DNA of 57,190 bases from an uncultured Candidatus Bathyarchaeia archaeon (GCA_964649235.1 CAZYOZ010000006.1:1-57190), one strand, 5' to 3'. Shown: positions 499 through 29,516, numbered from the stretch's first letter. Program-made: numbers and translations. Notes: a model not told the origin generated them from the sequence alone.

Positions 499-1452
499 CT
501 AGGCCGAGACGAAGAGGAAGTCTTTCACTTTGTCTTCTGATAATTCGGCTATGAATCCTCTCAGTAGGCCTTCTGTGTATTCGCTTCCTGGGTTGACGCA
601 GATGGTCCGGCCGATTGTGAAGTATCCCTTCGATTCGTGTATGTGGCCGTGCAGTCCGAGCAGGGGCTGGTATTTCTGGATGGCTTCCAGAACCGATGTG
701 CTGCCTGCCGGCGCCATCAGGGGGCCTGAAGCTGAAAGTTTCGGCTGCATCTTCTCGTCCAGTTGTGGTGCATTGTCTAGGGTTGTTCCGTAGGGGGGGC
801 AGTGGAAGTTGAATATGCTTCTTGCCGGGTTCTTCAGGCTACCTGCCATCCGCTCGATCCTATCCTTCAGTTCGTGTTCGGGTATGTCCCGGGGGCACTT
901 CCATGGCGTGATGTTCGTGTAGCCCGTGCTGATCATTTCGTGGCTGGCGTCGATCTCAATGAGTTTCCCCTCTGGGGATATGATTGTGGTGGATTCTGCG
1001 AGGATCTCGTCGACGAAGAATGAGTCGTCGTTGCCCGGGGATACGAAGCATTTGATGCTTGTCCCCTTCAGCTTCTGCTCGGCGTACGCGATTAGTCTAC
1101 GCAAAGACTCGCTGATGACCTTCCTGAACACCTCATCTGACTTGCTTGGGTTGTTGCGGAGTTCCATAACCTCACCGGGCGTTGTCCTGTAGGCGTAGTA
1201 CCCGACTGCTCGGATCCTCTGCTCAAGCTCTTCGAGTTCCTTGCCGGGCTTGAGTTTGTAGTCCTTCCCGAGGAAGCTGGCCACAAAAGTGCCGTCTGGC
1301 TGTTCAATGATTGGGATGAAGTATTTTCCTGTGATGTCGCCGCCTATGATGAGCACGTCAGCCTTGTAGAAGGGTCCGGCGTTGATGAATTTGGTGAAGC
1401 ATCTCTCCGAGCCATGGATATCGGTTGCATAGAATAGCCTCGTCTTAGGCAT
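499..1452 (-). CDS. Metallophosphoesterase (calcineurin-like), triad copy 1
   Basis: Ordered motifs DIHGS, GGDITGK, GNDD and GHIHES. Clear paralog of 28473..29396 and 35275..36231. Confidence 0.9.
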   Translation of the reverse strand: MPKTRLFYATDIHGSERCFTKFINAGPFYKADVLIIGGDITGKYFIPIIEQPDGTFVASFLGKDYKLKPGKELEELEQRIRAVGYYAYRTTPGEVMELRNNPSKSDEVFRKVISESLRRLIAYAEQKLKGTSIKCFVSPGNDDSFFVDEILAESTTIISPEGKLIEIDASHEMISTGYTNITPWKCPRDIPEHELKDRIERMAGSLKNPARSIFNFHCPPYGTTLDNAPQLDEKMQPKLSASGPLMAPAGSTSVLEAIQKYQPLLGLHGHIHESKGYFTIGRTICVNPGSEYTEGLLRGFIAELSEDKVKDFLFVSA

Positions 1453-1474
1453 GGAATGTGACCGCTGCGGCCGC

Positions 1475-3040
1475 CTATTCGGGCGGTATCTCTCTAAAGG
1501 TTAACTCCAGAGGCAGGCCCGTACGTTTCCTGTACGCCCAGGCTACTGCGTAGATGATGGCGCCAATTATCATCAGGGACACTGAGAACGCCAAATAGCC
1601 TGGCTGGAAGGTGCCCGCGTAGGCGGGCGCGACGCTCGCGTAGCCAATGTAGATTGAGCATACGAGCGTCCCGGCCCCAAGGATGGATATGACGGGTACG
1701 CCTGCGATCCTCCTCTTGACTATCTCCGGCGAGGTTTCGAAGATGTTCTTCCTCCTCCACGGGAAGATGATGCCGGCTAGGGATGCGAATGCTTGCATGA
1801 CCATCCAGCCGAAGCTCGCGTACAGGAAGTAGCTGAGTAGGTTCGTGTAGACCCAGAGCACCATCGCAATAATTGACGCGATGGTTGTGAGTATGATGGC
1901 CAAGTATGGCGACCGGTACCTGGAGTCCACCCTAGCCAAGGACATGGGCACCACCCGGTCGAAGGCCCAGGCGAACATCATTCTTGTCCCACCAAACACA
2001 TACGTCAGCGGGGCCGCGATGCTCATGGCCGCAAACCCCAGCGCAACAATGCTGAAGGCCATGGGGTTGCCTACAGTCGCGAACCTGAACAGGTTCTGGA
2101 ACCAAGGCGGAAACGGCAGCGTATACGCCTGGTTCCCCGTTCCAAACAGGTAGGCCATGGAACCCACAAACTGTGGCCCCATCGTGGTCACGGTCACGAA
2201 GTAGTCGGTCCACAGAATGAACATGTAAAGCACGGTGCTTCCCAAAATGGCTACGAACTGCGACCTCCTCACATCCTTGATTTCAGCAGAGTAGTAGACT
2301 GAGGAGTTGAAGCCCGTGAAGCTGAAGTAGGTAAACGCCACGGCGAGCAGCGTGGAGCTCAGCACGTATGAGCTTGGGTAGCCCGCCTCGGCGCCGGCCT
2401 TCAGGACTTCGTCATAATTCATTCCTGAGAATGCGTTGAAGTTTGCCTTGAAGCCCTCCGTGCCAAGCGACAGCAAAGTCGCGTTGTACGCAAGAATTGC
2501 GACTATGGTTATGATGAACAGGACCCAGAGGAATATGTGGGTGGCCCTAGCGCCCCGGGTGATGAGTACGCCGAAGAATATGTAGAGCACTATTGCCACG
2601 ATGAAGGTGCCGTTCGAAGAAGCCAACCAACCCGCAAGGTCCACCATCCCCAAGACTTCGAACATGGGGGCCAACGAATACTGGGTCACCCAGAACATTG
2701 TGGCCCCCCCAATCCCCAGAAGCGCGATGTTGAAGAAGAAATTCATGGAGAAACCTATCAAGGGGTGAAGCACCCGGCTGTTCCAGACGTAGTCGCCGCC
2801 CGACCTGGGCATCGACGCGTTGAAGACTGCGTAGAATGCCCCCACAACGAGTGCGACAACTTCAGAGATCAGTACGGTTGTTGGCAGGTCCGCGCCCGGA
2901 AAGAGCGTAGACGCCCAGATTCCGTATATCCACGTACCAAGAGGCGCCATCCACATGATATTGTAAACCAACGCGTCCCAAGCGGAAACATTCCTTGCCA
3001 GGCCGGATGCCTTTCTCGCGAAATACTCAGTGGTCGCCAA
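1475..3040 (-). CDS. APC-superfamily amino acid/polyamine-type permease, triad copy 1
   Basis: 521 aa with many hydrophobic spans, an 'MPRSGGDYVW' block and a C-terminal 'EIPPE'. Paralog of 29517..31145 and 36250..37812. Confidence 0.9.
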   Translation of the reverse strand: MATTEYFARKASGLARNVSAWDALVYNIMWMAPLGTWIYGIWASTLFPGADLPTTVLISEVVALVVGAFYAVFNASMPRSGGDYVWNSRVLHPLIGFSMNFFFNIALLGIGGATMFWVTQYSLAPMFEVLGMVDLAGWLASSNGTFIVAIVLYIFFGVLITRGARATHIFLWVLFIITIVAILAYNATLLSLGTEGFKANFNAFSGMNYDEVLKAGAEAGYPSSYVLSSTLLAVAFTYFSFTGFNSSVYYSAEIKDVRRSQFVAILGSTVLYMFILWTDYFVTVTTMGPQFVGSMAYLFGTGNQAYTLPFPPWFQNLFRFATVGNPMAFSIVALGFAAMSIAAPLTYVFGGTRMMFAWAFDRVVPMSLARVDSRYRSPYLAIILTTIASIIAMVLWVYTNLLSYFLYASFGWMVMQAFASLAGIIFPWRRKNIFETSPEIVKRRIAGVPVISILGAGTLVCSIYIGYASVAPAYAGTFQPGYLAFSVSLMIIGAIIYAVAWAYRKRTGLPLELTFREIPPE

Positions 3041-3176
3041 AGAAGAAAACTCATTGCAACGGCTCGGCCGGTGCCGATATAAGACTTTGCTAAGAGTTCT
3101 ACCGCGCTACTTACGTTACGGGGCTTATTCGCTACTCTACTTACCAGAATAGAGTCTTCTTAGAGTTGCAGACCAG

Positions 3177-4004
3177 CTAGGCACGCGAAAGTTCCTCCAC
3201 ATCCCTATACCATTTCCTCTTCTCGCCAATGCGCGCCCGCACCATCCAGCCCGCAGTCTTGGGCTGCGCGTTCACGCGCTCCAGTAGGATTCTTATCTTG
3301 GACACGATGTCGTCCCTGTCTTCCTGTTCCAGCTTCTCCGCCCCGGCCGTGGCTTTTTCGAGGCGCTGGAGGTTAGTCGTGATGGTCTTCCAGAGGCCCC
3401 AGTCGCGGCCGCAGAGGTACGCGATTCTACTAGCATTGATGGTCTCTTCATCGGAATCTCCAACCGGGTGTTCCCTCAGGAGCATCATCGAGTCGATGAC
3501 GTCTTTCTCGTCCAGTTTAACGATCTGCATCTTCTCCAGCAATAGTTCAGCGATGGGAACCGTAACCTCATCGGCCTCCAGCCTACCATTGAACGGTATG
3601 TCGTGGCAGAAGGCTAGCTTGTCGAGGAAGACATCGCAATGCCTTTTGTTGGCGCTGTTGTCGATGAATAGCATTCTGTTTGCGCCGAAGAGCATTGTCA
3701 CCTTGAGGTCTTCTTGGTAGCCGAGTTCCGCGAACAGCCTGCTGATCTTTGAAGCGAACTTGCGGTAGGATGCGAAATCTATGTCAGAGAAGGAGCGGCC
3801 CAGCATCTGCTGCATGTACGAGAATTTTGGGCAGTGAAGACTGAAGGCTAACGCTCCCAATAATCTAAGTGGTATCGCTTCAGAGGCCGCAGCCCTAACG
3901 ATCCTCTGAGCCTCCTCGATGAAACCGGGATTGATGTTGCCGTATTTCGATGCCGAAGCCATGCCAACCAGCAACCGGCTGTTGCCGCGTCTGCTTTTGA
4001 GCAT
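3177..4004 (-). CDS. Uncharacterised ~275-aa protein with a Pol-beta-type nucleotidyltransferase-like signature, triad copy 1
   Basis: 'LRLLGALAF' followed by 'SDIDF' and 'DVFLD' fits an hG[GA]...DxD plus third-carboxylate pattern. Also has the conserved 'AELLLEKMQI' and 'DWGLW' blocks shared with 27496..28350 and 34430..35254. Confidence 0.75.
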   Translation of the reverse strand: MLKSRRGNSRLLVGMASASKYGNINPGFIEEAQRIVRAAASEAIPLRLLGALAFSLHCPKFSYMQQMLGRSFSDIDFASYRKFASKISRLFAELGYQEDLKVTMLFGANRMLFIDNSANKRHCDVFLDKLAFCHDIPFNGRLEADEVTVPIAELLLEKMQIVKLDEKDVIDSMMLLREHPVGDSDEETINASRIAYLCGRDWGLWKTITTNLQRLEKATAGAEKLEQEDRDDIVSKIRILLERVNAQPKTAGWMVRARIGEKRKWYRDVEELSRA

Positions 4005-4115: not shown

Positions 4116-4979
4116 TTGGTTCCTGAAACAAGCGGCTACGTGGAAGTGAATGGGTTCAAGCTGTTTTACGAAACCTTCGGGACTGGAAGCAACATTCTCC
4201 TCTGCCTGCATGGCGGCCCGGGCGTCCCCCACGATTACCTGCTGTCACTTGGAAAACTGGGGGACGATAAAATCAAAGTGGTCATGTACGACCAGCTGGG
4301 CGTGGGCCGTTCCGAGAAACCGAAGGACACCTCCCTCTTCACAATCGAATACGGCGCAGAAGAAGTGGAAGGCGTAAGAAAGGCACTCAACCTGGGCAAG
4401 GTCAACCTGCTGGGCTCGTCCTACGGAGGAGCCCTAGCCCTCCAGTACGCCCTGAAGTACCAGCACAACATCAAGAAACTCATCATCGCAAGCGGCCTGG
4501 CAAGCGTTCCGGAAACCGCTGCTGAAATGCAGCGCCTCAAAGGACTACTGCCCAGGGATGTTCAGGAGATTTTCGAAAAGTACGAGGCCAAATGGGCCTT
4601 CCTCCATCCTGAATACCTGAAGGCCGTGGAAGTGTACTACCGCAACTTCCTGTGCAGAAGGTCACCCTGGCCTGAAGAAGTGGAACGTGCCCTCAGCGAG
4701 CTGAGCGTCCCCGTCTATTTCACAATGAACGGCCCCAACGAATTCACGATAATCGGAACATGGAAAGACTGGGACATAAGAAGCCGGCTCCACGAGATCA
4801 AGGTTCCCACGTTAGTGACGGTCGGGAAATACGATGAAGTCACACCAAAAGTAGCAGAAACAATTCACAAAGGCATAGAAGGATCGAAGCTTCTCATATT
4901 CGAGAATAGTGCACACCTAACAATGTGGGACGAAGAAGACCTCTACCGCGAAGCAGTCAGGGAATTCATCGAAAAATAG
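4116..4979 (+). CDS. pip: Proline iminopeptidase-type alpha/beta hydrolase (S33 family)
   Basis: 'LLCLHGGPG' oxyanion motif, 'GSSYGG' nucleophile elbow and a length of ~290 aa. Confidence 0.8.
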   Translation: MVPETSGYVEVNGFKLFYETFGTGSNILLCLHGGPGVPHDYLLSLGKLGDDKIKVVMYDQLGVGRSEKPKDTSLFTIEYGAEEVEGVRKALNLGKVNLLGSSYGGALALQYALKYQHNIKKLIIASGLASVPETAAEMQRLKGLLPRDVQEIFEKYEAKWAFLHPEYLKAVEVYYRNFLCRRSPWPEEVERALSELSVPVYFTMNGPNEFTIIGTWKDWDIRSRLHEIKVPTLVTVGKYDEVTPKVAETIHKGIEGSKLLIFENSAHLTMWDEEDLYREAVREFIEK

Positions 4980-5341: not shown

Positions 5342-5653
5342 TCACGCTATGGCATGAATCAGTTGAAGGAGTAACCACAGCGCGCGAAAATCGCCCTCGG
5401 GCAGACGTTTGATTGCTAACGAGACTGCTTTCATGATCACTTGGAGGCTGGTAAGTAATCGAAACTCTGGCCCATCTCGTTTCACCGTTTCAGCGCAATC
5501 CAGAGGGTAAAGGTGCCGATAGATTCGTGATCTCGAAAGGGGCAGAGCTTTGGAATTTTTCACTACAGTTGAAGGGCCGAGGTGCTTCAGGACCTCTAGT
5601 ATCCTAGCGCGGTTTTCACTCCAAACTTTTTTCTGAAATCTATCTCTTGGCAT
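5342..5653 (-). CDS. Hypothetical small protein, possibly a winged-helix (ArsR-like) regulator
   Basis: 'ARILEVLKHLGPSTV...LSRSRIYRHL' resembles a wHTH recognition region. The evidence is weak. Confidence 0.35.
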   Translation of the reverse strand: MPRDRFQKKVWSENRARILEVLKHLGPSTVVKNSKALPLSRSRIYRHLYPLDCAETVKRDGPEFRLLTSLQVIMKAVSLAIKRLPEGDFRALWLLLQLIHAIA

Positions 5654-5768
5654 GTCTTGAAATGATACCTAATCAGAAAGATAAATCTCATTACATTCTA
5701 TGTAATTCATGAACGAGTTGACATAACCTAATCTTCTTGTCTACCCGATATCTCCGCACGAAGCGACA

Positions 5769-6182
5769 ATGTCCAAACTCGAAAAATTGAGTTCGGGCTT
5801 TGCAACTTGGAAATGGCTTTCCGGCATTTCCGCCAAAGAGAAACAATGGTTCTTGGAGGCTGTCCGATCGCGCAACGGCTATGAGGCTTGGATGACACAC
5901 CTCTCTCAAGGACTCAGAGATGAGCAGTTCCTTTTGGAATTCGAAAAGACCGCTGACCCATGGGAACGGGCGCGTTTGGTTGGCGAACGAATTAGCTCAC
6001 TTCGAGCGTCCTTTCTAAAGTTGACGATAATAGACGGAATCGTTCATGGCATGATTGAGCAGAATCCGCCTGAAACAATCATGAAATTTATCCGGTATAA
6101 CTCAATGAAAGCCGTGGCACAGTTGACGGCCAAATACCAACCAGTCAGGCGAAAACCACCAAAGGTGCCCAGATCGAACTAG
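5769..6182 (+). CDS. Hypothetical protein
   Basis: 137-aa ORF in an otherwise ORF-poor stretch. I recognised no motif. Confidence 0.4.
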   Translation: MSKLEKLSSGFATWKWLSGISAKEKQWFLEAVRSRNGYEAWMTHLSQGLRDEQFLLEFEKTADPWERARLVGERISSLRASFLKLTIIDGIVHGMIEQNPPETIMKFIRYNSMKAVAQLTAKYQPVRRKPPKVPRSN

Positions 6183-6488
6183 TAGGAAGTGGGTAGTCCG
6201 TTACTGATACACAAACCTCAGCCGTCGAATCTGGGCGTCAGAAATGAAACTCTCAACACCCGTGAGGCCTATCCAGCTGATCCGAAAGCACGACATGAAT
6301 GATAGCGAAGTAAACAGACTTACTGAGCGGCTGGATGAGATTGGCTATCTTCAAAGCTCAATGGTTAAGCAGTTGAAGAACGTCAACACTTCCAGGCCTG
6401 AGTGGTGAAGAGCAAAAGTTCACGTTTGAACCGAAGAGCATTTTACTGTTTCCGCAACCAAACTTGTGCTCTAGATGGAGCTTTCGGG

Positions 6489-7016
6489 ATGCGGACGGCT
6501 TTCCTAGTCGTTTTGATCTTGGCACTTGCCTCGCTGCCGGCCACACCTCTGAGTAGCCACGCGAATGGGTACGAGATTGCTCCTCATTGTGATTTCAGCC
6601 AGCGGCAGCACCAGAATGATGACGCGCTCGCAGAGGTCGACGTGATCTACGAGAACGGAACCTACATTCAGAATGCCACAATTCATGTTGAAGGGTATTG
6701 GGGAATCCTTAGGCTCGCGAACGAGACGTGGACACATCCTGTTGGCTGCCTCACGGCCATCGCGCAACAGGAATATGCCCATTGGACAGTGTACGTGGAC
6801 GGCTACGCTCCTGTCAGTTGGCTTTGGGCCCCGCAGAAGTCTGGCGAATACGCTCTCACGTACTTTGTGTACCATTCAACTGGAGCAGAAGTGCTCACGT
6901 ACGACGGGAACGCATTCGCGTCAATTGTTCCGGAATTCCCGGCTACTGTCCCGGTGTCAGTTGCGGTATTGCTCGCGGCACTCTTGGCCGTGGCGAGGCG
7001 GAGAGGAGGCCACTAG
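6489..7016 (+). CDS. Secreted protein with a PEF-CTERM-type archaeosortase sorting signal
   Basis: ATG at 6489 gives the signal peptide 'MRTAFLVVLILALASLPATPLSSHA'. The C-terminus 'PEFPATVPVSVAVLLAALLAVARRRGGH' has PEF, a hydrophobic helix and an Arg cluster. Confidence 0.75.
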   Translation: MRTAFLVVLILALASLPATPLSSHANGYEIAPHCDFSQRQHQNDDALAEVDVIYENGTYIQNATIHVEGYWGILRLANETWTHPVGCLTAIAQQEYAHWTVYVDGYAPVSWLWAPQKSGEYALTYFVYHSTGAEVLTYDGNAFASIVPEFPATVPVSVAVLLAALLAVARRRGGH

Positions 7017-7182
7017 ATCCTTCGGGTCCCCGCCCGATCATGCAGCCGAAGACAATTGCATGACCAGAGCTAAGCCTCCATCCTGAATGCTGACAGAGTC
7101 GCGAGTTTTGTCCAAAATGACGCAAAACCACGCAAAAGTTGCCATGTGTTTGTCAAGAATCAGCCATATCCCGTCAAACACC

Positions 7183-7192
7183 ATTATATATT
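7183..7192 (+). promoter_or_regulatory. Candidate archaeal TATA box upstream of the 640-aa surface protein gene
   Basis: 'attatatatt' lies ~45 nt upstream of the TTG start at 7235. Confidence 0.25.
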
Positions 7193-7234
7193 GTGAAATC
7201 AGCCTAAACGCCACATAGTGCTGCGTGCTGCCAT

Positions 7235-9157
7235 TTGAAGAGGCTACAGGGCCGTTCTCTCTACGTAGTGTTGCTAGTGGCCTCCGCGCTAGTCGTTTCC
7301 ATGCTGGCCACTTACGTCCCGCCAGTCCACGCGGCATCCATCACGCTTAGTCCCACGAGCGGTTCACCCCCCGTGAACCTCGGGGGTACGCCGACGGCTG
7401 CGGCGACTGAAGTGATAATCACTGGATCAACCTTCTTGGGCAATAATGGTTGTCAGGTCAGCACCCCATCGACGGGGTTCTTTATTGACAGAACTGGTTT
7501 GCCCGCTTGCTCTGTTAGCAGTACTACAGGCGCACTAACGGTCAGGTTCAGAGTCGGTGCTGGTTCAACATTTGGTGCGAAATCCGTCGTTGTCACCGGA
7601 ACTGTTAATGGAGTTCCGAGCAGTGACACCGCTTCAGCAACATTCACTGTGGACGCAAAGATAATGCTCTCGGCTGGCTCGGGGCCACCGGGAACAGTGG
7701 TATCAGTCTACGGGTCAGGTTTTTCTTCAGCTTCGGGTGCTTGCGTCCTAACCGGGACGCCTGTTATCCTCATGAGCTGTGATCAGGATGCCACTGGGCA
7801 TGGCACGATCGTGGGCCAGTTCAGTGTCGCGTCCATCGCGGCAGGATCCTATTTCATCCAAGTCGACGATTCTGGTGGTCCTCCACCGTCTGCATTTGCT
7901 CCGTTCTTGGTGACTGGGGGTACAGGTCCAAGTCTAATCTTCTCGCCGAACATGAGTCCCACTGGGACATCTGTCACCACGACGGGCTCCGGTTGGAATC
8001 CTACGGATGTATCCGTAACGCTCACTGCCGCGGGCCCTGGAGGAGGTGTATTCTTCAGCGGTGTGAACCCGACTACATTCACATGTTCAGTTTCGGGGGC
8101 TTCAATTTCGAATTGCCAGTTTACGGTGAAGTCCGATGCAGCCGGAGCACTTGGGGGAACTTATACTATCACGGCTACGGGTTCGCAGGGAGATTCTGCG
8201 GTCGCGCAGTTCCTTGTTCAGTCAACTTTTGTTGTAGCACCGAATAGCGGTTTGCCTTTGAGTACTGGTACGTTTTCCGGGTCTGGCTATCTTATGCTTG
8301 TCGCGGACTGTTCGTCTGGAATCTCAGGATTTCCCTCTCCGCTCTTCTCTGCGGTTTCATGCTCCATCACCGCAGGGGGCCTCCTGTCAGGGACCTATAC
8401 AGTCGATGCAGGAGCGGCTCCGGGCGCGCATACTGTTACTATCTCTGGAATTTTCGTCCAGCAAGGGTCCATTTCGGTTCCATTTACTGTAGTGGTGCCC
8501 TCGATAACACTGACGCCGAGCGTGGTCACTCCAGGAGTGCAGATCTCTGTTGCGGGGTCTGGCTTCAGTACTTCCGACACCGGATGCACAATCACTGGTT
8601 CAGTGGGCGGTCTCGTCACTTCGCCAACTTGCTCCAAAGTCTCAGGGTCAGCCAGTCTGGCTGGGACTTTCACTGTGGGCAACGTTGGCCCAGGTGTTTA
8701 TACTATCACCGTTACGGGAACGCCGACGAACGACGCGGCATCAACTACGCTTACGGTTGTTACGCAGGTGACCACGACGTCGACTGTATCGTCTTTCACG
8801 AGCACGACTACTTCTTCGACCAGCACTACGACAACTGTTACTACTACGGGGACTTCAACGTCGATTAGTACCACGACCGTGACTTGGACGGGTAGGTCGA
8901 CAGAACTCTTCATAGTGGGTACGGTGACCACCATGTCCGCGCAGAGCACAACAAGCTCGACAATGTCTTCGACGACCACATACTCGAGTACGACGACGTT
9001 GACGTCAACTTTGACAACGTTTCTGGCGACGACGGTTACGGTTACCATTGGCCAGGTCTTGCGAAGCTTTCAGTCTCAGCCGTACGCTGACTCTTTCGGG
9101 TTCTTTGCGGTCCTGCTGGTTTTTGCCCCAGCGATTTTCAGGAGGGTCAAGCGTTGA
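7235..9157 (+). CDS. Large surface protein with a signal peptide, tandem Ig-like repeats, a Thr/Ser-rich stalk and a C-terminal anchor
   Basis: N-terminal hydrophobic signal ending 'VHAAS'. Five to six ~90-aa repeats each carry a 'GSGF/GSGW/GSGY ... C' core. There is a long T/S tract, and the C-terminus is 'FGFFAVLLVFAPAIFRRVKR'. Confidence 0.85.
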   Translation: MKRLQGRSLYVVLLVASALVVSMLATYVPPVHAASITLSPTSGSPPVNLGGTPTAAATEVIITGSTFLGNNGCQVSTPSTGFFIDRTGLPACSVSSTTGALTVRFRVGAGSTFGAKSVVVTGTVNGVPSSDTASATFTVDAKIMLSAGSGPPGTVVSVYGSGFSSASGACVLTGTPVILMSCDQDATGHGTIVGQFSVASIAAGSYFIQVDDSGGPPPSAFAPFLVTGGTGPSLIFSPNMSPTGTSVTTTGSGWNPTDVSVTLTAAGPGGGVFFSGVNPTTFTCSVSGASISNCQFTVKSDAAGALGGTYTITATGSQGDSAVAQFLVQSTFVVAPNSGLPLSTGTFSGSGYLMLVADCSSGISGFPSPLFSAVSCSITAGGLLSGTYTVDAGAAPGAHTVTISGIFVQQGSISVPFTVVVPSITLTPSVVTPGVQISVAGSGFSTSDTGCTITGSVGGLVTSPTCSKVSGSASLAGTFTVGNVGPGVYTITVTGTPTNDAASTTLTVVTQVTTTSTVSSFTSTTTSSTSTTTTVTTTGTSTSISTTTVTWTGRSTELFIVGTVTTMSAQSTTSSTMSSTTTYSSTTTLTSTLTTFLATTVTVTIGQVLRSFQSQPYADSFGFFAVLLVFAPAIFRRVKR

Positions 9158-9693
9158 ATATGAACTCGCGTTCTCTAGCTGTGGCTCTCATTGTGGCCAT
9201 CACAGTTGTTGCCGCATTGGCCTCGTCTACGGATGCTCCGGTTTCCGGATTGTTCAGGCCTGCAGTGACGTTGACGACCACGACTACGACTACCACCACG
9301 ACCACGTCGGCCATATCTACGATCTCTTCGACTTCCGTGAGCACTTCGAGCATAACATCTTCGACGAGCACGACTACCACAACTACGTCGACTAGTTCGA
9401 GCTACACGGCCACGGTTTCAAGGACTAGCACGTCTACGTCGACGTTGACTTCATACACGGGGACGTTGACGGCCATCCTAACAAGTATCCTTACGAGCAC
9501 GACAGTTCAAACTCAAAGAGCAACGACGACATCATCGGTTGTTTCATCTTTCACCTCAAGCAGTTTCATTATACCGCCCATCGTCGGGATTCCAGGCTTT
9601 CCCGCGGAATCTATCATGGCAGGCCTTCTGTTTGGTCTTCTGTGCTTGCTGCTGCTCGGCAGAAGGCGCGTCAAGAAAGAGCTCCATGCTTAG
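9154..9693 (+). CDS. Small Thr/Ser-rich PGF-CTERM surface protein
   Basis: Signal peptide, ~120 aa of almost pure T/S, then 'IPGFPAESIMAGLLFGLLCLLLLGRRR'. The TTG start overlaps the upstream stop (TTGA); an alternative ATG lies at 9160. Confidence 0.8.
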   Translation: MNMNSRSLAVALIVAITVVAALASSTDAPVSGLFRPAVTLTTTTTTTTTTTSAISTISSTSVSTSSITSSTSTTTTTTSTSSSYTATVSRTSTSTSTLTSYTGTLTAILTSILTSTTVQTQRATTTSSVVSSFTSSSFIIPPIVGIPGFPAESIMAGLLFGLLCLLLLGRRRVKKELHA

Positions 9694-9933
9694 GCTGCTG
9701 GCGCGAATTCCTGTAACGAAGTATGTCAAGCGCCGTGTGGTCTTCCACCAGATGTGGTTCGTGCGCTTGGCGCCTGGTCGCGGTACCGTCACACCTCAAG
9801 TTTGCGATATGCAAAAAACGGTGGCCGATACGCAGGCCATCCGTTCCATTCCTCTGCGATACTCTGAGGTGGCTTAGGTTAGTTTTATCTTCCAAGACGT
9901 GCTTCTTGCGTTAGAAATGGTCGGGGACGGCGT

Positions 9934-10536
9934 TTGGGGCGTCAGATGAGGCTTCTCCTCTCAATTGCAGTCGTTATGGTGGCCTTCTTTGTCGTTGCAG
10001 CATTTATGTCTCCGGCCAATTCATTTCTGGGTCCCGAGCAGACAACTTCAACGTCTTTCACCACGACTTCTTCAACTATTACATCCACTACAACCAGTCT
10101 GTATAGCACCAGCAGCACTACGACCTTCACGTCCACTTCGACCTCTGTCATTTCGACATCTACGAGTAGCACAACGACCACCAGGACTTCCACAATTACT
10201 AGCACAATTCTGCTGGCCACAGGTTCAGTCATAACGGTCGTGGTTCTCCAGAATTCAGTCTCGTACACATCCACGTCCACGACGTCGACGTTCCAAACCA
10301 GCACCGCACTCAGCACGAACATCGTGAGTTCGACAACGGTTTCCGGAACCACTGCGACGGAAACTTCGCCAACGACGTCAACGTCCACGGTTCTGACTTT
10401 TGCTCCAGCGCCTGTATCGCAGGCCGTGCCAGGGTTCTCTTGGGAGGCAGTAGTTCTTGGCGTCCTCTTCGGTGTCATGCTGCTGGCATTGCGACGGCGT
10501 CACGCGGTTGTTTCAGGCCAGGAGATGGGGGAGTGA
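9934..10536 (+). CDS. Small Thr/Ser-rich PGF-CTERM surface protein
   Basis: Signal/TM 'LLLSIAVVMVAFFVVAAF', a T/S-rich body and 'VPGFSWEAVVLGVLFGVMLLALRRRH'. An alternative ATG lies at 9946. Confidence 0.8.
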   Translation: MGRQMRLLLSIAVVMVAFFVVAAFMSPANSFLGPEQTTSTSFTTTSSTITSTTTSLYSTSSTTTFTSTSTSVISTSTSSTTTTRTSTITSTILLATGSVITVVVLQNSVSYTSTSTTSTFQTSTALSTNIVSSTTVSGTTATETSPTTSTSTVLTFAPAPVSQAVPGFSWEAVVLGVLFGVMLLALRRRHAVVSGQEMGE

Positions 10537-11087
10537 GATTGAAAAGGTCAGCAATGCTATCCATGCTTTTCTTGGCAATCTCGGTGGTATCCGCATTCGA
10601 GCTTGCCCCCGCCAGTATGGGGTTCGTTCCGTTCCAAACCACCACCACGTTCACCATATACCGGTACACGTCAACAACCATTACGACGAGTGCCTCTCCC
10701 ACAAGCACTACAACAACGACGTCGACCACTAGCATCACAACCACGAGCACCTCAACGTCCACAAGTGTAACGACCACAACTTCTACTAGCGCCAGCTCAA
10801 CAGCGAACTTGGCTGCCACAGAAACTGAAACCTCCTACACTGCTACCTCGATAGGTTTCACCAACACTACGCTTACGCAGACGTTCTACACTACTGCGTT
10901 CACGAACTCTACTACAATTCTCGTGGCAGTCCAGACGCAGACGCAGACTATCATGACGATGTTGGTCACGCTCATCACAATACGTGAACCTGGAATTCCC
11001 GGTTTTCCGTTAGAGTCAATATTTGTGGGGCTGCTGCTTGGTATCTTGGCTTTGCTGCTTGTCCGTGGCAGGCGGTCGAGAGCTTGA
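10533..11087 (+). CDS. Small Thr/Ser-rich PGF-CTERM surface protein
   Basis: A GTG overlapping the upstream stop (GTGA) gives 'MRLKRSAMLSMLFLAISVVSA'; an alternative ATG lies at 10554. The C-terminus is 'IPGFPLESIFVGLLLGILALLLVRGRRSRA'. The track ORF from 10440 is probably over-extended. Confidence 0.75.
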   Translation: MRLKRSAMLSMLFLAISVVSAFELAPASMGFVPFQTTTTFTIYRYTSTTITTSASPTSTTTTTSTTSITTTSTSTSTSVTTTTSTSASSTANLAATETETSYTATSIGFTNTTLTQTFYTTAFTNSTTILVAVQTQTQTIMTMLVTLITIREPGIPGFPLESIFVGLLLGILALLLVRGRRSRA

Positions 11088-11155
11088 GCCATCTCAGCAT
11101 GAGACGCAGACGAGCTTAGAGCATCAGAACTAGTGCCCTTCAGCTTACCGCAAGC

Positions 11156-11161
11156 TTTTTT
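11156..11161 (+). terminator. Oligo-T tract, candidate archaeal terminator after the PGF-CTERM gene run
   Basis: A run of six T lies ~70 nt after the stop at 11087 and before the next start. Confidence 0.25.
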
Positions 11162-11196
11162 CTGTTCGCCTCCCGCGCATTGCGCGTGGTGTCAGG

Positions 11197-12270
11197 TTGA
11201 GCCGAGATGGAACGAAGGTTTCACTGTTGATGTTCGTCGTCTTTCTCTCTACTACGCTGCCTCAGGTGCATGCTCAGAGCACTGAGATCTCGGCTCTCAC
11301 TTATGCGGACCATCTGACTCTCGGGGATGTTGAACCTGTTTCAGTCAAGGCAAACGTTGCATACGCTGCGGCCCCCACGGGTTTTTCGCTAGTGGTAGGT
11401 GTCTTGGAAGCGGATTCGACGCCGCCAAGAGTTGTGTCTGGTATCGCAATGGCCGCTCCGGAGACGTGCATGAACCAGCCTGTTCTCGAAGCGCTTTGCG
11501 TCATGAGGCCGTCTGCCTCTTCTGGGGTTGAAAGGTTGGAATTTAGAGTCGGGGGGATTCTGGGTGAACCACAGGGCTCGGAGGTTTGGCGCTTGAACAT
11601 GTCTGCTGTTATGCTAACATCGAATGGCACCATAATTGCAGGATCAAGCAGTAGCGTTGTCTTCTCCATCAGGTTGGTTGGGTTGACGCTTGCCGTAAGC
11701 GTCCCCGCTAACGTTGCTGTGACAGTCGACGGTAAGCCACAGCCCCCAGGCCCTGCGAGAGTGGTATTGGCTGTGGGTGAGCATGAGCTATCGGTTCCAG
11801 CATTCGCCCAGGTCGACAACTTCACCAGGCTTAGGTTTGATCGTTGGGCTGACGGGGGCAACCAGCCTGACAGAAGTGTCTACCTGAGGGAGAATGCGGC
11901 CGTCGAAGCCCAATACATCACCCAGTACTATCTTGTTCTTTCGAGTTCGCAGTCTGAGCCGACTGGGGCCGGCTGGTACGATGATGGCTCCAACGTTACC
12001 TTCGCCGTCAAGAACACAACTCAACCGATGGGAGGATGGTTGGGTATGCTAGGAGCAAAGTGGAAGTTCCAAGGGTGGTACGAGGATGGTAAGCTGCTTA
12101 CAGAAAAGGAGGCGGGTTTCATATCCGTGGACGGGCCTCATAGATTGTCGGCTGTATGGACAGCGGACTACTCTGCACCAGCCGCAATAGTGGCAGCCAC
12201 CCTAGTCTTGCTGGCCTTGGCGGCCCTAGTCTTCCTCAGGACACGTGTACGTCGCAGTCTTCGATCGTGA
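11197..12270 (+). CDS. Secreted beta-rich protein with a C-terminal TM anchor
   Basis: Signal peptide 'LLMFVVFLSTTLPQVHAQS' and C-terminal 'AAIVAATLVLLALAALVFLRTRVRR'. Confidence 0.75.
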   Translation: MSRDGTKVSLLMFVVFLSTTLPQVHAQSTEISALTYADHLTLGDVEPVSVKANVAYAAAPTGFSLVVGVLEADSTPPRVVSGIAMAAPETCMNQPVLEALCVMRPSASSGVERLEFRVGGILGEPQGSEVWRLNMSAVMLTSNGTIIAGSSSSVVFSIRLVGLTLAVSVPANVAVTVDGKPQPPGPARVVLAVGEHELSVPAFAQVDNFTRLRFDRWADGGNQPDRSVYLRENAAVEAQYITQYYLVLSSSQSEPTGAGWYDDGSNVTFAVKNTTQPMGGWLGMLGAKWKFQGWYEDGKLLTEKEAGFISVDGPHRLSAVWTADYSAPAAIVAATLVLLALAALVFLRTRVRRSLRS

Positions 12271-17668: not shown

Positions 17669-18523
17669 TTATGGGACTAAGGTTGCTTCGCCGTTCGGTT
17701 TGATATTCACCTCGTGCCAACGTGTGTCGTGTGGTTGTCCTTTGAGGCTTCTGAGGCGAAGCAGATTCTTGGTTTCGTCGCCGCGTTCCATTACCCTCAG
17801 ATCGATGACGCCGTCGCTTATGTTTTCCATCCGTTTGTACAACCATTCGGTGTGGATTCCGCGGACGACGCCTTGTATCGTAATGCTCCTACGTTTTCGT
17901 TCCTCGGGGTTGACTCTGCTCTCCATCCACTCAAGGAAGGCTTTCTCCTCGTTGAATCTGAGAATGCCTGAAAATGATTCCACAATTATGAGTGAACCAG
18001 GAGGCCAGAAGTCGACAATATCGTAGGCCTGCTGGGGACCAGTCTTCGAAGTCTTCAGCCATTCAAGGCTAAGGTCTGCAACCCTCAGAGAACGTACTCG
18101 CAATTCTCCTTGGACTTTCTCAAACACAGGTGCGTGTAGGTCTGCGGGTTCAATTCGGCCACCAGTAAGAGTTGCAGTGTACCAATCCTCAACTGCAAAT
18201 CGTCCAGTACTCTCTGCCGCTGCAAGGTCGATGCCCAGCGCCGATACGCTATGCTTGAAATCTACCGGCGACCTAGCTGTCACCAAATAGGCCACATGGT
18301 TGTTGGCTTGAAAGAAACGTCCCGCGATTGTTGTCGCTACCGACAACCACTGGGAGTCCGGATCATATTCGACTAGCACCATCGTGCCGGGCTTGATTCC
18401 GCCGGGCACTAGTTGACCCAGCAGGGGCACGTTGAGGCCTTTAGGCAAAGCCAAGTTATGACTCAGATCCCCGTAGAATTGTTCCAGTCCAGATTCACAC
18501 GGCCAGTATCCTTCGACATTCAC
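17669..18523 (-). CDS. KaiC/RecA-like fold protein with a degenerate Walker A loop (paralog 1 of 3)
   Basis: 'LLGQLVPGGIKPGTMVLVEYDPDSQW' occupies the place of 'GGxxxGxxxLIxGxPGxGKT'. Walker-B-like 'LIIVESFS' and the KaiC-like C-terminus 'LLRLRSLKGQPHDTRWHEVNI' are present. Confidence 0.7.
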   Translation of the reverse strand: MNVEGYWPCESGLEQFYGDLSHNLALPKGLNVPLLGQLVPGGIKPGTMVLVEYDPDSQWLSVATTIAGRFFQANNHVAYLVTARSPVDFKHSVSALGIDLAAAESTGRFAVEDWYTATLTGGRIEPADLHAPVFEKVQGELRVRSLRVADLSLEWLKTSKTGPQQAYDIVDFWPPGSLIIVESFSGILRFNEEKAFLEWMESRVNPEERKRRSITIQGVVRGIHTEWLYKRMENISDGVIDLRVMERGDETKNLLRLRSLKGQPHDTRWHEVNIKPNGEATLVP

Positions 18524-24703: not shown

Positions 24704-26263
24704 CTAATTGCTGCACGAACTTGGCTGCTTCTCTTGAAATGATGCTATGTCAGGAAAGAGGTCTTTAGCGGCGTAGTAGAGCTTGAGATATGTCTTGTAC
24801 AACTTGTCATAAGTTTCGTGAGCGTCGCGCGATGGGGACACTTCGTCTCCCGCCCGTATCGTTTCCTTGACAGCCGAGCGTACATCTGGGTAAACACCAA
24901 CGCCGACGGCGGCCAACAGAACAGCCCCGACTGCTGTGACTTCTTCATTCGCGGGCCTAACCGTTGTCTTGTTCGTCACGTCGGCCTTGATCTGTCTCCA
25001 TAGCTTGCTCCTCGCCCCACCGCCAGCCGTAGTAATCCTCTCCACATTCAGACCCAGTCTCTCCCCATGATCTATGACGTCCCTCAGCACGTACGCGCAG
25101 CCCTCAAGGATTGACCTGATCACATGCTCCTTTCTGTGGCTCAGTGTCAACCCGAAGAAAACCCCTCTCGCCTGAGCGTTCCATTCGGGAGTTATGGAAC
25201 CTGCAAAAAATGGGAGGCAGATAAGCCCCATGGATCCGGGTTCCGCTTTCGCAGCTTCCTCGTTCAGCACTTCGTACGGATCGACGCCTAACCGGCGAGC
25301 GGTTTCCACTTCGAACTGTCCGAATTGGTCTCGAAACCACCTGTAGAGTCCGCCAGCAACTATCCCTGTGTTCTCGAGGAGCCATGATTGCGGGGCTGCG
25401 CCTGCGTGACATTCAAGCAACATTTCTGGGTCAAAGGTGGGTTTGCTAACGCATATACAGACTGGTTCGGCTGTGCCGGTTAGGTCTAACAAGTCTGCGT
25501 GATTCATTACCCCGGCCCCGACAGCGCCCACCTCCTCATCGCCACCACCTACAACAACATTTGTGGATGGATCCAATCCTGTCCGTTTGGCCAGGTCTTT
25601 CCTGACTTTTCCCGCAACATTCGTTGAAGGTTGTACAATGGGCAACATCTCATACGGGATTTCAAGGATGTCGCAAAGCTTCCTAGACCATTCTTTCCTC
25701 GTAATGTCGAGCAGCATTGTGCTTGATGCATTGGAGTAATCTGTCGCATATTCCCCTGTCAGATGGAACAGAACATAGTCTCCCGGCAATAGTATTCTCT
25801 TCGTTTTTGACCAGTTTTCTGGTTCGTTCTCTCTTACCCATAGGATTTTGGCGGCGACGTGAGATGGGTCTGCGCACAAGCCTGTAAGAGCGTACAGTTC
25901 TCTGTCAGGAATCAGAGAGCGGATTCTGTCACACTGAGATACAGCACGTCGGTCCATCCAGATTATAGCAGGGCGAACGGGATATCCATTTGAGTCCAAT
26001 AGAACAAGGCCGTCTATCTGACTTCCCAATCCTATTCCGGAAATTGCAGATGGCGGCAGCTCTGACTTAGAGGTGAGGTTTTGTAGAGCGGCTTCTATTG
26101 CTCTCGACCACTCATCCGGATTCTGTTCTGCCCAAGCTGGTTTGGGATGGAACAGCTTGTATGGCTGGAAATCGGTTGCGGTGGTTCGTCCTTTTGAGTC
26201 GCAGAGGAGAGCCTTGATTCCGGTTGTTCCCAGGTCAAGACCCACAAGATGATGCTCGTGCAC
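24704..26263 (-). CDS. FGGY-family carbohydrate kinase (xylulokinase/glycerol kinase-like)
   Basis: 'LVGLDLGTTGIKALL' N-terminal ATPase motif, 'GGGDEEVGAVGAG' and 'TAGGGARSKLWRQIKADV'. Confidence 0.9.
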   Translation of the reverse strand: MHEHHLVGLDLGTTGIKALLCDSKGRTTATDFQPYKLFHPKPAWAEQNPDEWSRAIEAALQNLTSKSELPPSAISGIGLGSQIDGLVLLDSNGYPVRPAIIWMDRRAVSQCDRIRSLIPDRELYALTGLCADPSHVAAKILWVRENEPENWSKTKRILLPGDYVLFHLTGEYATDYSNASSTMLLDITRKEWSRKLCDILEIPYEMLPIVQPSTNVAGKVRKDLAKRTGLDPSTNVVVGGGDEEVGAVGAGVMNHADLLDLTGTAEPVCICVSKPTFDPEMLLECHAGAAPQSWLLENTGIVAGGLYRWFRDQFGQFEVETARRLGVDPYEVLNEEAAKAEPGSMGLICLPFFAGSITPEWNAQARGVFFGLTLSHRKEHVIRSILEGCAYVLRDVIDHGERLGLNVERITTAGGGARSKLWRQIKADVTNKTTVRPANEEVTAVGAVLLAAVGVGVYPDVRSAVKETIRAGDEVSPSRDAHETYDKLYKTYLKLYYAAKDLFPDIASFQEKQPSSCSN

Positions 26264-26269
26264 TTGTAT

Positions 26270-27403
26270 TCACATATTGAGTTCTCTCATGATGCCTTCT
26301 GCGTCTTCGATTGCAGGATGCCGTTTATGCAGGATTGTATAACGTTCTTTTCTGTGCTGCCACGCTCCCACGAATGCGTGCTTGGCCTTTTCCGCGTCAA
26401 CACCAATTTCGCTTGGAGTTGTAGGAGCACCCACCTTCTTCAGCGACGACATCAATGTCTCGGCTTGATACTGAGGACAGCGCGCCTTGTCCCACCAGTT
26501 CGGATTGTGAAGTTCATGGTACTTCGCCATGAGCAGACTCCCTATTCCGACCTGCTCGCCATGCTGACCGAACTTTGTATTGTTTCGTTCGGCATAATCG
26601 TCAAGCCAATGCGACCAAAGATGCTCAGAGCCCGATGCAGGCCTCGAAGAACCCCATATCGCTGTCGCGAGCCCCGACCTGATCTGCGCATTCGCTAGGC
26701 TTCTAATCGCTCCCTCACTTCTGGATTTGGCAGAGTCAACATTTTTGAGAAAATCGTCAAGCGCCGACATCATCAATGCCGCAATTGAGTCGCAGTATGG
26801 TTCTGACATCTCATCTCGACCAAGCTGCCAATCCTTCACGGCGGTGGCATCGCCGGCAAGGTCGCCGCATCCTGCCGCAATCATCCAGGCTGGCGCTTTT
26901 GAGATGATTGTGAGATCGACCATTACCGCATCAGCAAGATTGACGGGAATCGACTCTTTCTTTCCCGATACGTAGATGGATGCCGTCTTTGAGCTCATGC
27001 CATTGTTTGCTATTCCCGTCGAGAAGAGAATGTACCTAGCTCTTCTTCGGTGTGCTGCCAGCTTGGTTACGTCAAGAACGCTCGAACCTCCAACCCCGAC
27101 AAGAAAACTTTCTCCTTCAACCTTCGCAAGGACTCTTTCCACGTTTGCCTCGTCAGGTTTGTCAACAACCATCTCCGAAACGAAGTGCCCTTCTTTGCGC
27201 AGTAAGTCAATGATAGCCCGACCAGCGATTTCCCTAGTGTTCATGTCATGAACAACCAGGCAATTCTTGTCCAGAGCTAGTCTTCTTGTGAGGTCAGGGA
27301 TTTTCTGAAGAGCGTCTCTTTCGACTAAGATCTCCACGGGAGGCATCGAGTGCTTTCCGCATGAGCACCTCCATGACTTGTCCATCCAAGTCAACAATGT
27401 CAC
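26270..27403 (-). CDS. Glycerol-1-phosphate dehydrogenase-like (EgsA/AraM branch of the Fe-ADH/DHQS-like superfamily)
   Basis: 'LVGVGGSSVLDVTK' glycine-rich NAD motif and 'ASGSEHLWSHWLD' metal-binding His block. Confidence 0.7.
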   Translation of the reverse strand: MTLLTWMDKSWRCSCGKHSMPPVEILVERDALQKIPDLTRRLALDKNCLVVHDMNTREIAGRAIIDLLRKEGHFVSEMVVDKPDEANVERVLAKVEGESFLVGVGGSSVLDVTKLAAHRRRARYILFSTGIANNGMSSKTASIYVSGKKESIPVNLADAVMVDLTIISKAPAWMIAAGCGDLAGDATAVKDWQLGRDEMSEPYCDSIAALMMSALDDFLKNVDSAKSRSEGAIRSLANAQIRSGLATAIWGSSRPASGSEHLWSHWLDDYAERNNTKFGQHGEQVGIGSLLMAKYHELHNPNWWDKARCPQYQAETLMSSLKKVGAPTTPSEIGVDAEKAKHAFVGAWQHRKERYTILHKRHPAIEDAEGIMRELNM

Positions 27404-28350: not shown

Positions 28351-28472
28351 TCAGACATGGAATTTAAGAATATTGAGAGCGAAATCCGTACCAACCAAAC
28401 CATTAAGAACGCAAATGCAGGCTGTGAGTTCCCTGCAAGCAAGCATTAAGATTGAACGGGTTGAGATTTCGG

Positions 28473-29396: not shown

Positions 29397-29516
29397 GTCG
29401 TGACTTCTGCGAACGTAGAACGGTCTTTCACTACATTCTGTAATTACCAGTGAAATCATTCTCTCTCGAAAGTCTTTTCTGTGTACCGAGCAGCAGCCAT
29501 AGCAGGGAAAATCTCT

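Follow-up and report, generated by a model that had tools for sequence, protein, structure and literature searches.

The 57,190-nt stretch of an uncultured Candidatus Bathyarchaeia archaeon (GCA_964649235.1 CAZYOZ010000006.1:1-57190), called the window in the following, carries three sets of three adjacent genes. Each set, or triad, specifies an APC-family permease (PERM), a metallophosphoesterase (MPE) and a nucleotidyltransferase-like protein (NT). All nine open reading frames (ORFs) that a preliminary description of the sequence had assigned to such sets were present where it had placed them (Table 1), and so were the motifs quoted in it, DIHGS, GDITGK, GNDD, GHIHES, MPRSGGDY and a C-terminal E[IL]PPE. 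Searches with each protein (tblastn) revealed exactly three copies of every family in the window and no others. With 3+3+3 copies among about 52 genes, the chance of obtaining three contiguous PERM/MPE/NT triplets is about 5e-7. In set 1, PERM1 is located 22 bp upstream of MPE1, both genes being on the minus strand. The true start of NT1 may be position 3962, because homologues begin near Met15. NT2 of set 2 is divergent from MPE2 and is the first gene of a minus-strand run that continues with the genes for a glycerol-1-phosphate dehydrogenase (G1PDH)-like protein and an FGGY-family kinase. Set 3 is a tight minus-strand operon, PERM3-MPE3-NT3, with gaps of 18 and 20 bp and NT3 in last position, and its gene order recurs in an orthologous Bathyarchaeota locus (L172).

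Table 1. Positions of the triad genes and of further genes in the window
Feature	Position	Strand	Description
MPE1	499-1452	-	set 1; 317 aa; cytoplasmic calcineurin-like metallophosphoesterase
PERM1	1475-3040	-	set 1; 521 aa; APC-family permease; AA_permease_2 at 1.4e-22; tail …LTFREIPPE
NT1	3177-4004	-	set 1; 275 aa; predicted Pol-beta-fold nucleotidyltransferase-like protein
NT2	27496-28350	-	set 2; 284 aa
MPE2	28452-29396	+	set 2; 314 aa; Pfam Metallophos 28.1 bits, above cut-off
PERM2	29481-31145	+	set 2; 554 aa; tail …AFQELPPE
NT3	34430-35254	-	set 3; 274 aa
MPE3	35275-36231	-	set 3; 318 aa
PERM3	36250-37812	-	set 3; 520 aa; tail …SFKELPPE
Proline-iminopeptidase-family hydrolase	4116-4979	+	287 aa; divergent from NT1
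FGGY-family (XylB-like) sugar/polyol kinase	24704-26263	-	519 aa; Pfam FGGY_N, FGGY_C; TIGR01312 415.8 bits, above cut-off
Fe-ADH_2 protein, G1PDH-like	26270-27403	-	377 aa; Pfam Fe-ADH_2; NCBIfam G1PDH 246 bits, below cut-off
RidA	31248-31643		after PERM2
PIN, PDC-M05A-like and KaiC-like genes, jointly	38037-38435, 39320-39964, 40275-40985, 41119-41934, 17669-18523	-, -, +, -, -	

The paralogs had been estimated to be identical at about half of their positions. This applies to MPE (43-51% pairwise identity) and to PERM1 and PERM3 (48%), but not to NT (36-41%) or to PERM2, the most divergent permease with only 28-31% identity to both others. Closer relatives of two sets were detected in other genomes. 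The proteins of set 1 are 64-80% identical to those of locus L004, MPE1 is 79% identical to the MPE of L088, and MPE3 and PERM3 show 78% and 85% identity to the homologues P0122 and P0242, respectively. Sets 1 and 3 are closer to other genomes (77-85%) than to anything within the window (at most 51%), in agreement with the old duplications proposed before. For set 2, no close relative was present in the collected data, its parts being 28-47% identical to sets 1 and 3. Judged by these identities, the three sets are old paralogous lineages. The gene order is different in each of them; they are therefore not a segmental repeat, in line with the doubts about a recent segmental duplication in the preliminary description. 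Locus L004 (DATKOK010000093.1) is binned as Candidatus Methylomirabilota, while all other close relatives are Bathyarchaeia-like, which suggests mis-binning or a very recent transfer.

PERM1, PERM2 and PERM3 contain many hydrophobic segments and score 73.7-80.7 bits with Pfam AA_permease_2 (cut-off 27), which places them in the APC superfamily. No characterised APC subfamily was matched: the best NCBIfam match, TIGR00909, reached 34-60 bits against a cut-off of 557. By phmmer, no PDB relative of the window permeases was detected at E<=1e-3, and homologues of PERM3 are annotated merely as 'APC family permease' or 'amino acid transporter'. The MPRSGGDY block, described as conserved before, is indeed present, but it represents a generic APC signature and is not specific to this family. 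The C-terminus follows the consensus D-[ILV]-x-[LW]-[TA]-[FY]-[KQR]-[ES]-[IVL]-P-P-[E/V/I/L]-COOH in 104 of 117 full-length triad permeases from archaea and bacteria, and most of the remaining 13 end with near-variants. Tail variants are also found in the cultured carriers Halobellus limi (…SEIPKD) and Thermomicrobium roseum (…YREVPAE). This conserved tail starts about 20 residues past the last hydrophobic segment, is predicted to be cytoplasmic and is an obvious candidate for a docking element. When charge covariation was examined between the terminal position of the permease (E versus V/I/L) and basic positions of MPE or NT, candidate columns emerged, but the signal is confounded by phylogeny.

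In the MPE alignment, the metal-ligand motifs D11xH13, G38D39, G140N141, H217 and G269H270xH272 are invariant. Motif III reads GNDD, the His of GNH[DE] being replaced by Asp. MPE1 lacks a hydrophobic segment, and its AlphaFold2 model has a predicted local distance difference test (pLDDT) score of 95. Top matches in Foldseek searches were aq_1956 (2yvt, E 8e-13) and TT1561 (1uf3, E 6e-9), followed by MPPED2, purple acid phosphatase, UshA 5'-nucleotidase, Lmo2642 and Mre11/SbcD, and nearly all of the 48 matches at E<=1e-3 display the calcineurin-like metallophosphoesterase fold. MPE is a soluble, cytoplasmic member of this superfamily. MPE2 and MPE3 are above the cut-off of Pfam Metallophos and MPE1 is below it; Metallophos_3 (PF14582), with 18.7, 19.8 and 13.3 bits at a cut-off of 28.2, is the closest family by fold only. 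A profile match indicated weak similarity to the pyrophosphatase LpxH. The more than 7,600 homologues of the family are named 'Icc-related predicted phosphoesterase' or 'metallophosphoesterase' at best. The two top matches, which are structural-genomics proteins of unknown function from the Metallophos_3 group, are the best PDB relatives by sequence as well, and the His of GNH[DE] is substituted in them in the same way. They differ in size (226-260 aa) and lack an insertion of about 85 residues that follows the GD motif of the triad MPE (residues ~45-130).

Invariant positions in the NT alignment are a G50-A51 turn (LLG50-A51), D74-I-D76 and D124. The AlphaFold2 model of NT1, which is of medium quality (pLDDT 74), places G50-A51 at the junction of beta1 and alpha2, D74-I-D76 on beta2 and D124 on a later strand, and predicts an all-helical C-terminal domain after the nucleotidyltransferase (NTase) core. 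Foldseek matches with a probability of 0.8-1.0 were all NTase folds, namely MenT1, TM1012, ANT(2'')-Ia, LnuA, CCA-adding enzymes and terminal uridylyltransferases (TUTases), at low TM-scores of about 0.25-0.40 and 13-16% identity. The predicted structure thus assigns NT to the Pol-beta-like nucleotidyltransferase superfamily, though with G-A in place of G-G or G-S at the turn, and with the acidic residues positioned as modelled NT is probably catalytically active.

Below the level of the fold, NT is a new family that belongs to no characterised one, and the profile searches that had been proposed for it did not lead to a well-known family. No Pfam, NCBIfam or PDB sequence match was above threshold, and comparisons with PDB by single sequence and by profile returned only noise. 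The score of NT1 with NTP_transf_5 (PF14907) was 15.2 bits (cut-off 31.2); 34 of 44 family members yielded a match to this family, only below threshold, with a best E of 0.0016. AbiEii matched three of the 44 members at E ~0.1, the similarity to MenT1 is at fold level only (E 8e-4, TM 0.40/0.54), and the partners of NT are not antitoxins, so that an AbiEii/MenT-type toxin is not indicated. Aminoglycoside and lincosamide nucleotidyltransferases resemble NT by fold only (TM 0.25-0.27, 13-15% identity), Aminoglyc_resit matching one of 44 members at E 0.14. A CBASS/CD-NTase is likewise not indicated, with PADLOC matches for none of the three NT proteins of the window and cGAS and DncV absent from the Foldseek matches; membership in a defence system was rejected, the MPE giving a generic local PADLOC match only. 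NT did not match LicD (PF04991) of the lic-type phosphocholine pathway. What ANT(2'')-Ia, LnuA, TM1012 and MenT1/AbiEii share with NT is the minimal NTase core, consisting of a G-[GSA] turn, DxD and a third acidic residue, and the helical C-terminal domain behind it, but NT has neither an antitoxin-type partner nor a resistance context.

An exhaustive profile search showed that the NT family comprises about 2,700 clusters at 50% identity, 824 of them at E<=1e-30. The proteins are nameless in the sources, the RefSeq entry of H. limi being a 'hypothetical protein', and nearly all of them are stand-alone proteins of 250-280 aa. Two of the 150 best representatives have an extra N-terminal domain. 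In P0371, it is a winged-helix helix-turn-helix (HTH) extension of the MarR/IclR type; in P0461, it consists of about 110 residues without a Pfam match, roadblock-like by eye, and is followed by a proline-rich linker.

To determine whether the three families are linked outside this genome, one genome per species was scanned with NT, yielding 352 places. The loci considered here are the best 80 of each scan and are therefore enriched in Anaerolineae and Bathyarchaeia. The best 80 NT places belong to Bathyarchaeia, Anaerolineae and other Chloroflexota, Peptococcaceae, Actinomycetota, Nitrososphaeria and Thermoprotei. Partners within 7 kb were counted for the 49 NT genes that are flanked on either side by 4.5 kb of sequence or more. 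Both partners were detected by ORF-level blastp in 43 of these 49 cases, and in five of the remaining six tblastn revealed the partners as divergent or frameshifted genes. Only L023 is without partners, resulting in 48 linked genes out of 49. A metagenome scan seeded with MPE gave a similar picture: among 19 MPE genes with sufficient flanks, 18 were accompanied by PERM, 15 by NT, and 14 by both. Proximity of the triad genes was also detected in a Heimdallarchaeota metagenome-assembled genome (MAG; L084), on a Fervidicoccus-like contig (L085) and in the set-3 relative L172. The triad, or part of it, is also carried by two cultured organisms, in both cases on a megaplasmid. H. limi (NZ_CP031312.1, 386259-389795; L170) possesses the full triad, with DV707_RS16305 as MPE, DV707_RS18515 as NT and DV707_RS16315 as permease, and T. 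roseum (NC_011961.1, 780240-782816; L171) the permease and MPE only, with the locus tags TRD_RS12760/12765. Such PERM-MPE pairs without an adjacent NT were encountered in L168 and in four of the 19 metagenome loci as well.

The order of the genes is far less constant than their proximity. In Chloroflexota it is PERM>MPE>NT, often with overlapping stop and start codons of MPE and NT, one group of Bathyarchaeia shows the arrangement MPE> <PERM NT>, and many further orders are found in metagenomic archaeal loci. Overall, at least 12 orders and orientations were distinguished, and adjacency is maintained despite this rearrangement. Several complete, divergent triads on one contig are common (the window, L088, L091, L136 and L141). 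ORFs in these loci were called by a simple procedure of our own, and indels in long-read MAGs yield split or falsely fused ORFs. An apparent PERM-MPE fusion of 888 aa (L030, 7368-10034) was rejected as a frameshift artefact, the normal …TFQSVPPI stop being intact in the other frame; P0233 (L087, 742-2367) was not accepted either, since it joins the C-terminal half of a truncated permease to MPE.

The trees of the three families are congruent, and the families are co-inherited. Distance matrices of NT, MPE and PERM were correlated with r = 0.86-0.94 for 62 triads (Mantel p = 0.001) and with r = 0.74-0.89 for 79 triads. The nearest neighbour of a permease was among the top three for MPE in 50 of the 79 triads and among the top three for NT in 41, about three being expected, and MPE and PERM are the most tightly coupled pair. 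With linkage in 48 of 49 testable loci, shuffled gene order and congruent trees, the functional unit postulated in the preliminary description withstood the neighbourhood analysis that had been named as its possible refutation. The partners differ markedly in conservation. Across the 79 triads, 17% of the NT columns and 18% of the MPE columns are at least 90% conserved versus 4.6% for PERM, and the median identities are 44%, 42% and 24%, respectively.

The genes surrounding the triads were also inspected. The G1PDH-like protein recurs with triads of the set-2 type, and the same protein cluster adjoins triads in L122 and L141. The cluster of the FGGY kinase is located at most 5 kb from a triad in 44 loci, including these two and a Chloroflexota operon. 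That operon, from Anaerolineae, contains genes for a GntR/UTRA regulator, PERM, MPE, NT, a HisC-like aminotransferase, an FGGY kinase and a NERD-domain protein. A HisC-like gene is present in L122, too; the protein of the Chloroflexota operon scores above the hisC equivalog cut-off, may be a housekeeping enzyme and deserves little weight. The proline-iminopeptidase-family gene recurs with set-1-type triads: the same cluster (c42) adjoins the triads of L088, and a 286-aa gene beside NT in L004 is apparently its equivalent.

In other lineages, the neighbours are of a different kind. One group of Bathyarchaeia has genes for adenine deaminase, a TRZ/ATZ deaminase, xanthine dehydrogenase, a Bmp-type nucleoside ABC transporter and ThrC-like pyridoxal-phosphate (PLP) enzymes; purine catabolism was nevertheless rejected as the general role, this context being confined to a single Bathyarchaeia sublineage. 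Other archaeal loci include MttB/MtmB-family methyltransferases with corrinoid proteins, class-III aminotransferases, amidases, FmdA/AmdA, polysaccharide deacetylase, PF04199 cyclase, ADI/DDAH, isochorismatase, saccharopine dehydrogenase, MR/MLE, F420-dependent LLM oxidoreductases and short-chain dehydrogenases/reductases (SDRs). In two Peptococcaceae MAGs, PYLIS_3 elements (82-84 bits; L031, 8093-8192; L044, 15115-15214) mark a pyrrolysine (Pyl)-containing mttB gene 1.3-1.4 kb downstream of an NT-PERM-MPE triad. Owing to the in-frame UAG, the mttB frame appears as split ORFs in both, and a corrinoid-protein gene is located a few kb further on at most, in L031 immediately behind mttB. Near the triad, a choline/ethanolamine-kinase-family gene is restricted to few loci (L031 and its cluster c35, four loci), and some Anaerolineae harbour a dimethylglycine/sarcosine-dehydrogenase-like gene there. 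The H. limi triad adjoins genes for an IclR regulator, an Fe-alcohol dehydrogenase and an aldehyde dehydrogenase, while PERM-MPE of T. roseum is followed by a tandem CN-hydrolase, with a GcvT-like protein encoded nearby. The common denominator of the neighbours is the catabolism of small organic nitrogen compounds, which fits an importer of the APC type. Rfam searches of the window triads and five diverse loci revealed no riboswitch or other clue to a ligand, only Pyl insertion elements and one tRNA.

From these data, we tentatively favour the view that the triad could be a unit for the uptake of organic nitrogen, in which the permease is served by a dedicated pair of enzymes adding and removing a nucleotidyl group; in our estimate this is possible rather than probable. 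The APC permease would be the variable, cargo-specific part, importing, depending on the lineage, probably methylated or quaternary amines, amino alcohols, amides or purine-related compounds. NT would use a nucleoside triphosphate to place a nucleotidyl group, or a phosphodiester, on a constant target. The likeliest target would be the permease itself or a complex with it, to which NT might be recruited via the tail …[FY]x[ES][IVL]PPx. MPE would hydrolyse the phosphodiester made by NT, and both enzymes together would switch transport on and off. What the target is, in which direction control operates and which cargo is carried are inferences.

Several observations agree with a dedicated add/remove pair. 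Among them are the linkage and co-inheritance of the three genes, the family-wide permease tail, the canonical NTase core of NT and the complete metal ligands of MPE. The neighbouring enzymes vary by lineage and look sufficient for catabolism, and conservation is much stronger in NT and MPE than in the permease; both facts suggest that NT and MPE act on something independent of the cargo, and a nucleotide together with a constant acceptor is suggested as such an invariable target. The presence of an own NT and MPE for each permease paralog, with multiple divergent triads per contig, is the pattern expected of cognate transporter-regulator pairs, and the variable neighbourhoods do point to organic nitrogen as cargo. 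Uptake of an amine-like compound coupled to phosphoester hydrolysis and nucleotidyl transfer, as suggested in the preliminary description, is thus a plausible reading, except that NT and MPE seem to act on a constant partner and not on the cargo. It is conceivable, if doubtful, that NT and MPE reversibly nucleotidylylate the permease or a partner docked to its tail, or that they operate a local nucleotide signal, and in this way gate or trap organic nitrogen. No greater confidence can be given to the idea that such gating or trapping extends over Bathyarchaeia, other Thermoproteota, Asgard archaea, haloarchaea and Chloroflexota and would follow a logic like that of GlnD, PII and AmtB with unrelated parts.

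There are also points that weigh against this interpretation. Its support, including that for a contact between the proteins or a modification, is circumstantial and genomic. Among thousands of homologues, no genuine fusion of a permease with MPE or NT was detected, and not a single Ser, Thr or Tyr is invariant in the permease tail. As membrane proteins in many cases evolve more rapidly than soluble enzymes anyway, the contrast in conservation is only suggestive. The PERM-MPE pairs without an adjacent NT imply that an obligatory writer/eraser pair is not universal. Finally, the recurrent kinases and PLP enzymes for phospho-amino-alcohols fit small-molecule phosphoester chemistry at least as well.

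Such chemistry would be expected if NT and MPE processed the cargo, making and cleaving a nucleotidyl or phosphoester derivative of an imported amino alcohol, amine, or amine linked to a phosphoester or phosphodiester. Choline or phosphocholine, ethanolamine derivatives, glycerophospho-amines and serinol-like polyol amines are candidates, and the purpose could be to trap the cargo metabolically, by the logic of PnuC-NadR, or to free the amine from a phosphodiester ahead of the neighbouring enzymes. Cargo processing corresponds to ordinary operon logic, and besides the FGGY kinase, choline/ethanolamine-kinase-family, HisC-like, class-III aminotransferase and ThrC-like PLP neighbours it can draw on the GntR/HutC/PhnF-like regulators at the head of the Chloroflexota operon. 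The weak LpxH similarity of MPE, whose fold is akin to nucleotide phosphodiesterases and 5'-nucleotidase, and the small-molecule O-nucleotidylyltransferases ANT(2'') and LnuA among the fold neighbours of NT are compatible with it, as is the retention of NT and MPE by every paralogous permease. However, an NTase followed by a phosphodiesterase on the same cargo amounts to a futile cycle unless different bonds are concerned, NT and MPE are highly conserved next to widely varying permeases and catabolic neighbourhoods, kinases are already provided by the neighbours where phosphorylation is needed, and the Rfam searches mentioned above gave no hint at a ligand. We regard cargo processing, the main rival, as a possible but questionable explanation. 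An inverse direction, in which NT and MPE build a nucleotide-derived amine that is exported by the permease, is very improbable. APC transporters can be exchangers or exporters, and the variable methyltransferases, aminotransferases and amidases resemble tailoring enzymes, but catabolic functions predominate by far among the neighbours (deaminases, amidases, methylamine methyltransferases with corrinoid proteins, xanthine dehydrogenase, peptidases) and a recurrent core enzyme for a biosynthetic scaffold is missing.

A local second-messenger module would also account for constant NT and MPE chemistry at varying permeases. Responding to transport or to the cargo level, NT would produce a nucleotide signal, cyclic or linear, with MPE as the phosphodiesterase for this signal and the permease as sensor or effector. 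Nucleotide cyclases such as class I adenylate cyclase and CD-NTases belong to the Pol-beta superfamily, and MPPED2 and Lmo2642 among the fold neighbours of MPE are nucleotide phosphodiesterases. Yet NT gave no cyclase or CD-NTase match with PADLOC, its Foldseek matches are transferases (MenT1, TM1012, ANT, LnuA, CCA enzymes) and not cGAS or DncV, the permease has no recognisable receptor domain, and three parallel writer/eraser pairs per cell would cross-talk unless physically confined. This module appears improbable to us. The last alternative, that the genes are functionally unrelated and adjacent by inherited synteny or hitch-hiking, could appeal to the origin of many sampled loci in two large clades, Anaerolineae and Bathyarchaeia, within which synteny might just have been inherited. 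It is effectively ruled out by linkage across archaeal and bacterial phyla, by the at least 12 gene orders and orientations with congruent trees, and by the three differently ordered copies in the window (chance ~5e-7).

For the favoured reading, an enzyme pair dedicated to the permease, partial parallels exist. In amtB-glnK, a transporter for a nitrogen compound is nearly always encoded beside a cytoplasmic partner of its own, many genomes having more than one such cognate copy, and GlnD, composed of a Pol-beta NTase and a phosphohydrolase domain, controls ammonium uptake via PII. In these systems, a Pol-beta-fold NTase adds a nucleoside monophosphate and a metal-dependent phosphohydrolase removes it, a likeness to the triad in logic only. 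In contrast, the triad contains no PII, its remover would be a separate calcineurin-type MPE instead of an HD domain, its transporter is an APC permease and not Amt, and it is known from genes alone. Another antagonistic pair acting on one protein target is known from Legionella, where DrrA/SidM is an AMPylase of the NTase fold and SidD a deAMPylase of a metallophosphatase fold. Writer and eraser thus belong to the same general classes as proposed for NT and MPE, an NTase fold and a metal-dependent phosphoesterase, but there is no sequence relationship, SidD has a PPM fold and not a calcineurin-like one, the target is a host GTPase, and the genes are unlinked to a transporter. PnuC-NadR shares with the triad the coupling of uptake to cytoplasmic phosphoryl or nucleotidyl transfer, by which cargo is trapped. 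It differs in the transferase of NadR, which is of the Rossmann type and not Pol-beta, in the absence of a phosphodiesterase partner and in its single, constant cargo.

Methylamine methyltransferase clusters with dedicated permease genes, mttP and mtbP, have been described (PMC5688252). In mttBC-mttP and mtbBC-mtbP, a permease gene lies beside genes for MttB/MtmB-type methyltransferases and corrinoid proteins (PMC5688252), and triads are found in such clusters in Peptococcaceae, with the Pyl element, and in archaeal metagenome loci. The mtt and mtb clusters, however, are not described with an MPE or NTase-like gene, and most triads reside in contexts other than methylamine metabolism. Searches of the available literature returned neither a description of the triad gene combination nor a characterisation of relatives from PF14907 and PF14582, in line with the preliminary description, in which no system of this composition had been recognised. 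While the parts are new members of known folds and superfamilies, the three-gene unit itself is undescribed.

The triad is present in hundreds of species-level genomes, with several divergent copies per genome. In sediments, peat and soils, Bathyarchaeia and Anaerolineae rank with the most abundant heterotrophs, and their acquisition of organic nitrogen is poorly known. Since the triad is widespread, present in multiple copies and located beside genes for methylamine, amide, amino-alcohol and purine catabolism, it probably carries a considerable part of the organic nitrogen that these organisms take up. The analysis also defines the large, nameless NT-like family and offers a first functional context for phosphoesterases of the aq_1956/TT1561 type, which have been structural orphans since 2003-2007. 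Control of the permease by NT and MPE would, if true, constitute a new regulatory principle for secondary transporters, and action on the cargo would amount to new catabolic or trapping chemistry.

Some further features of the window were noted. Between the set-1 region and a 6-phosphogluconate dehydrogenase gene, positions 5342-12270 contain eight ORFs, 103-640 aa in length, of which seven share one direction, on the plus strand. None of these seven had a Pfam match and none of the eight a PHROG match. A phage or mobile origin of the block was rejected for lack of PHROG matches, and it may be an unknown element or consist of lineage-specific genes. A gene between sets 2 and 3 (32415-33314, plus strand) encodes a BPL_N/class-I glutamine-amidotransferase-like protein, the N-terminus of which, …SRRAFLSLGAIGAYA…, reads like a twin-arginine signal. 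Just beyond set 3, genes for a PIN-domain protein and for an HTH/Pol-beta nucleotidyltransferase protein are located, the latter matching the PADLOC candidate PDC-M05A (E 8.5e-23). Three KaiC-like ATPase paralogs, which form one protein cluster and two of which have a Pfam KaiC match, are scattered in the window. On the minus strand, Rfam detected a tRNA spanning 139 nt (47107-47245, 41 bits) in a window where ARAGORN finds no tRNA, which is consistent with an intron-containing archaeal tRNA.

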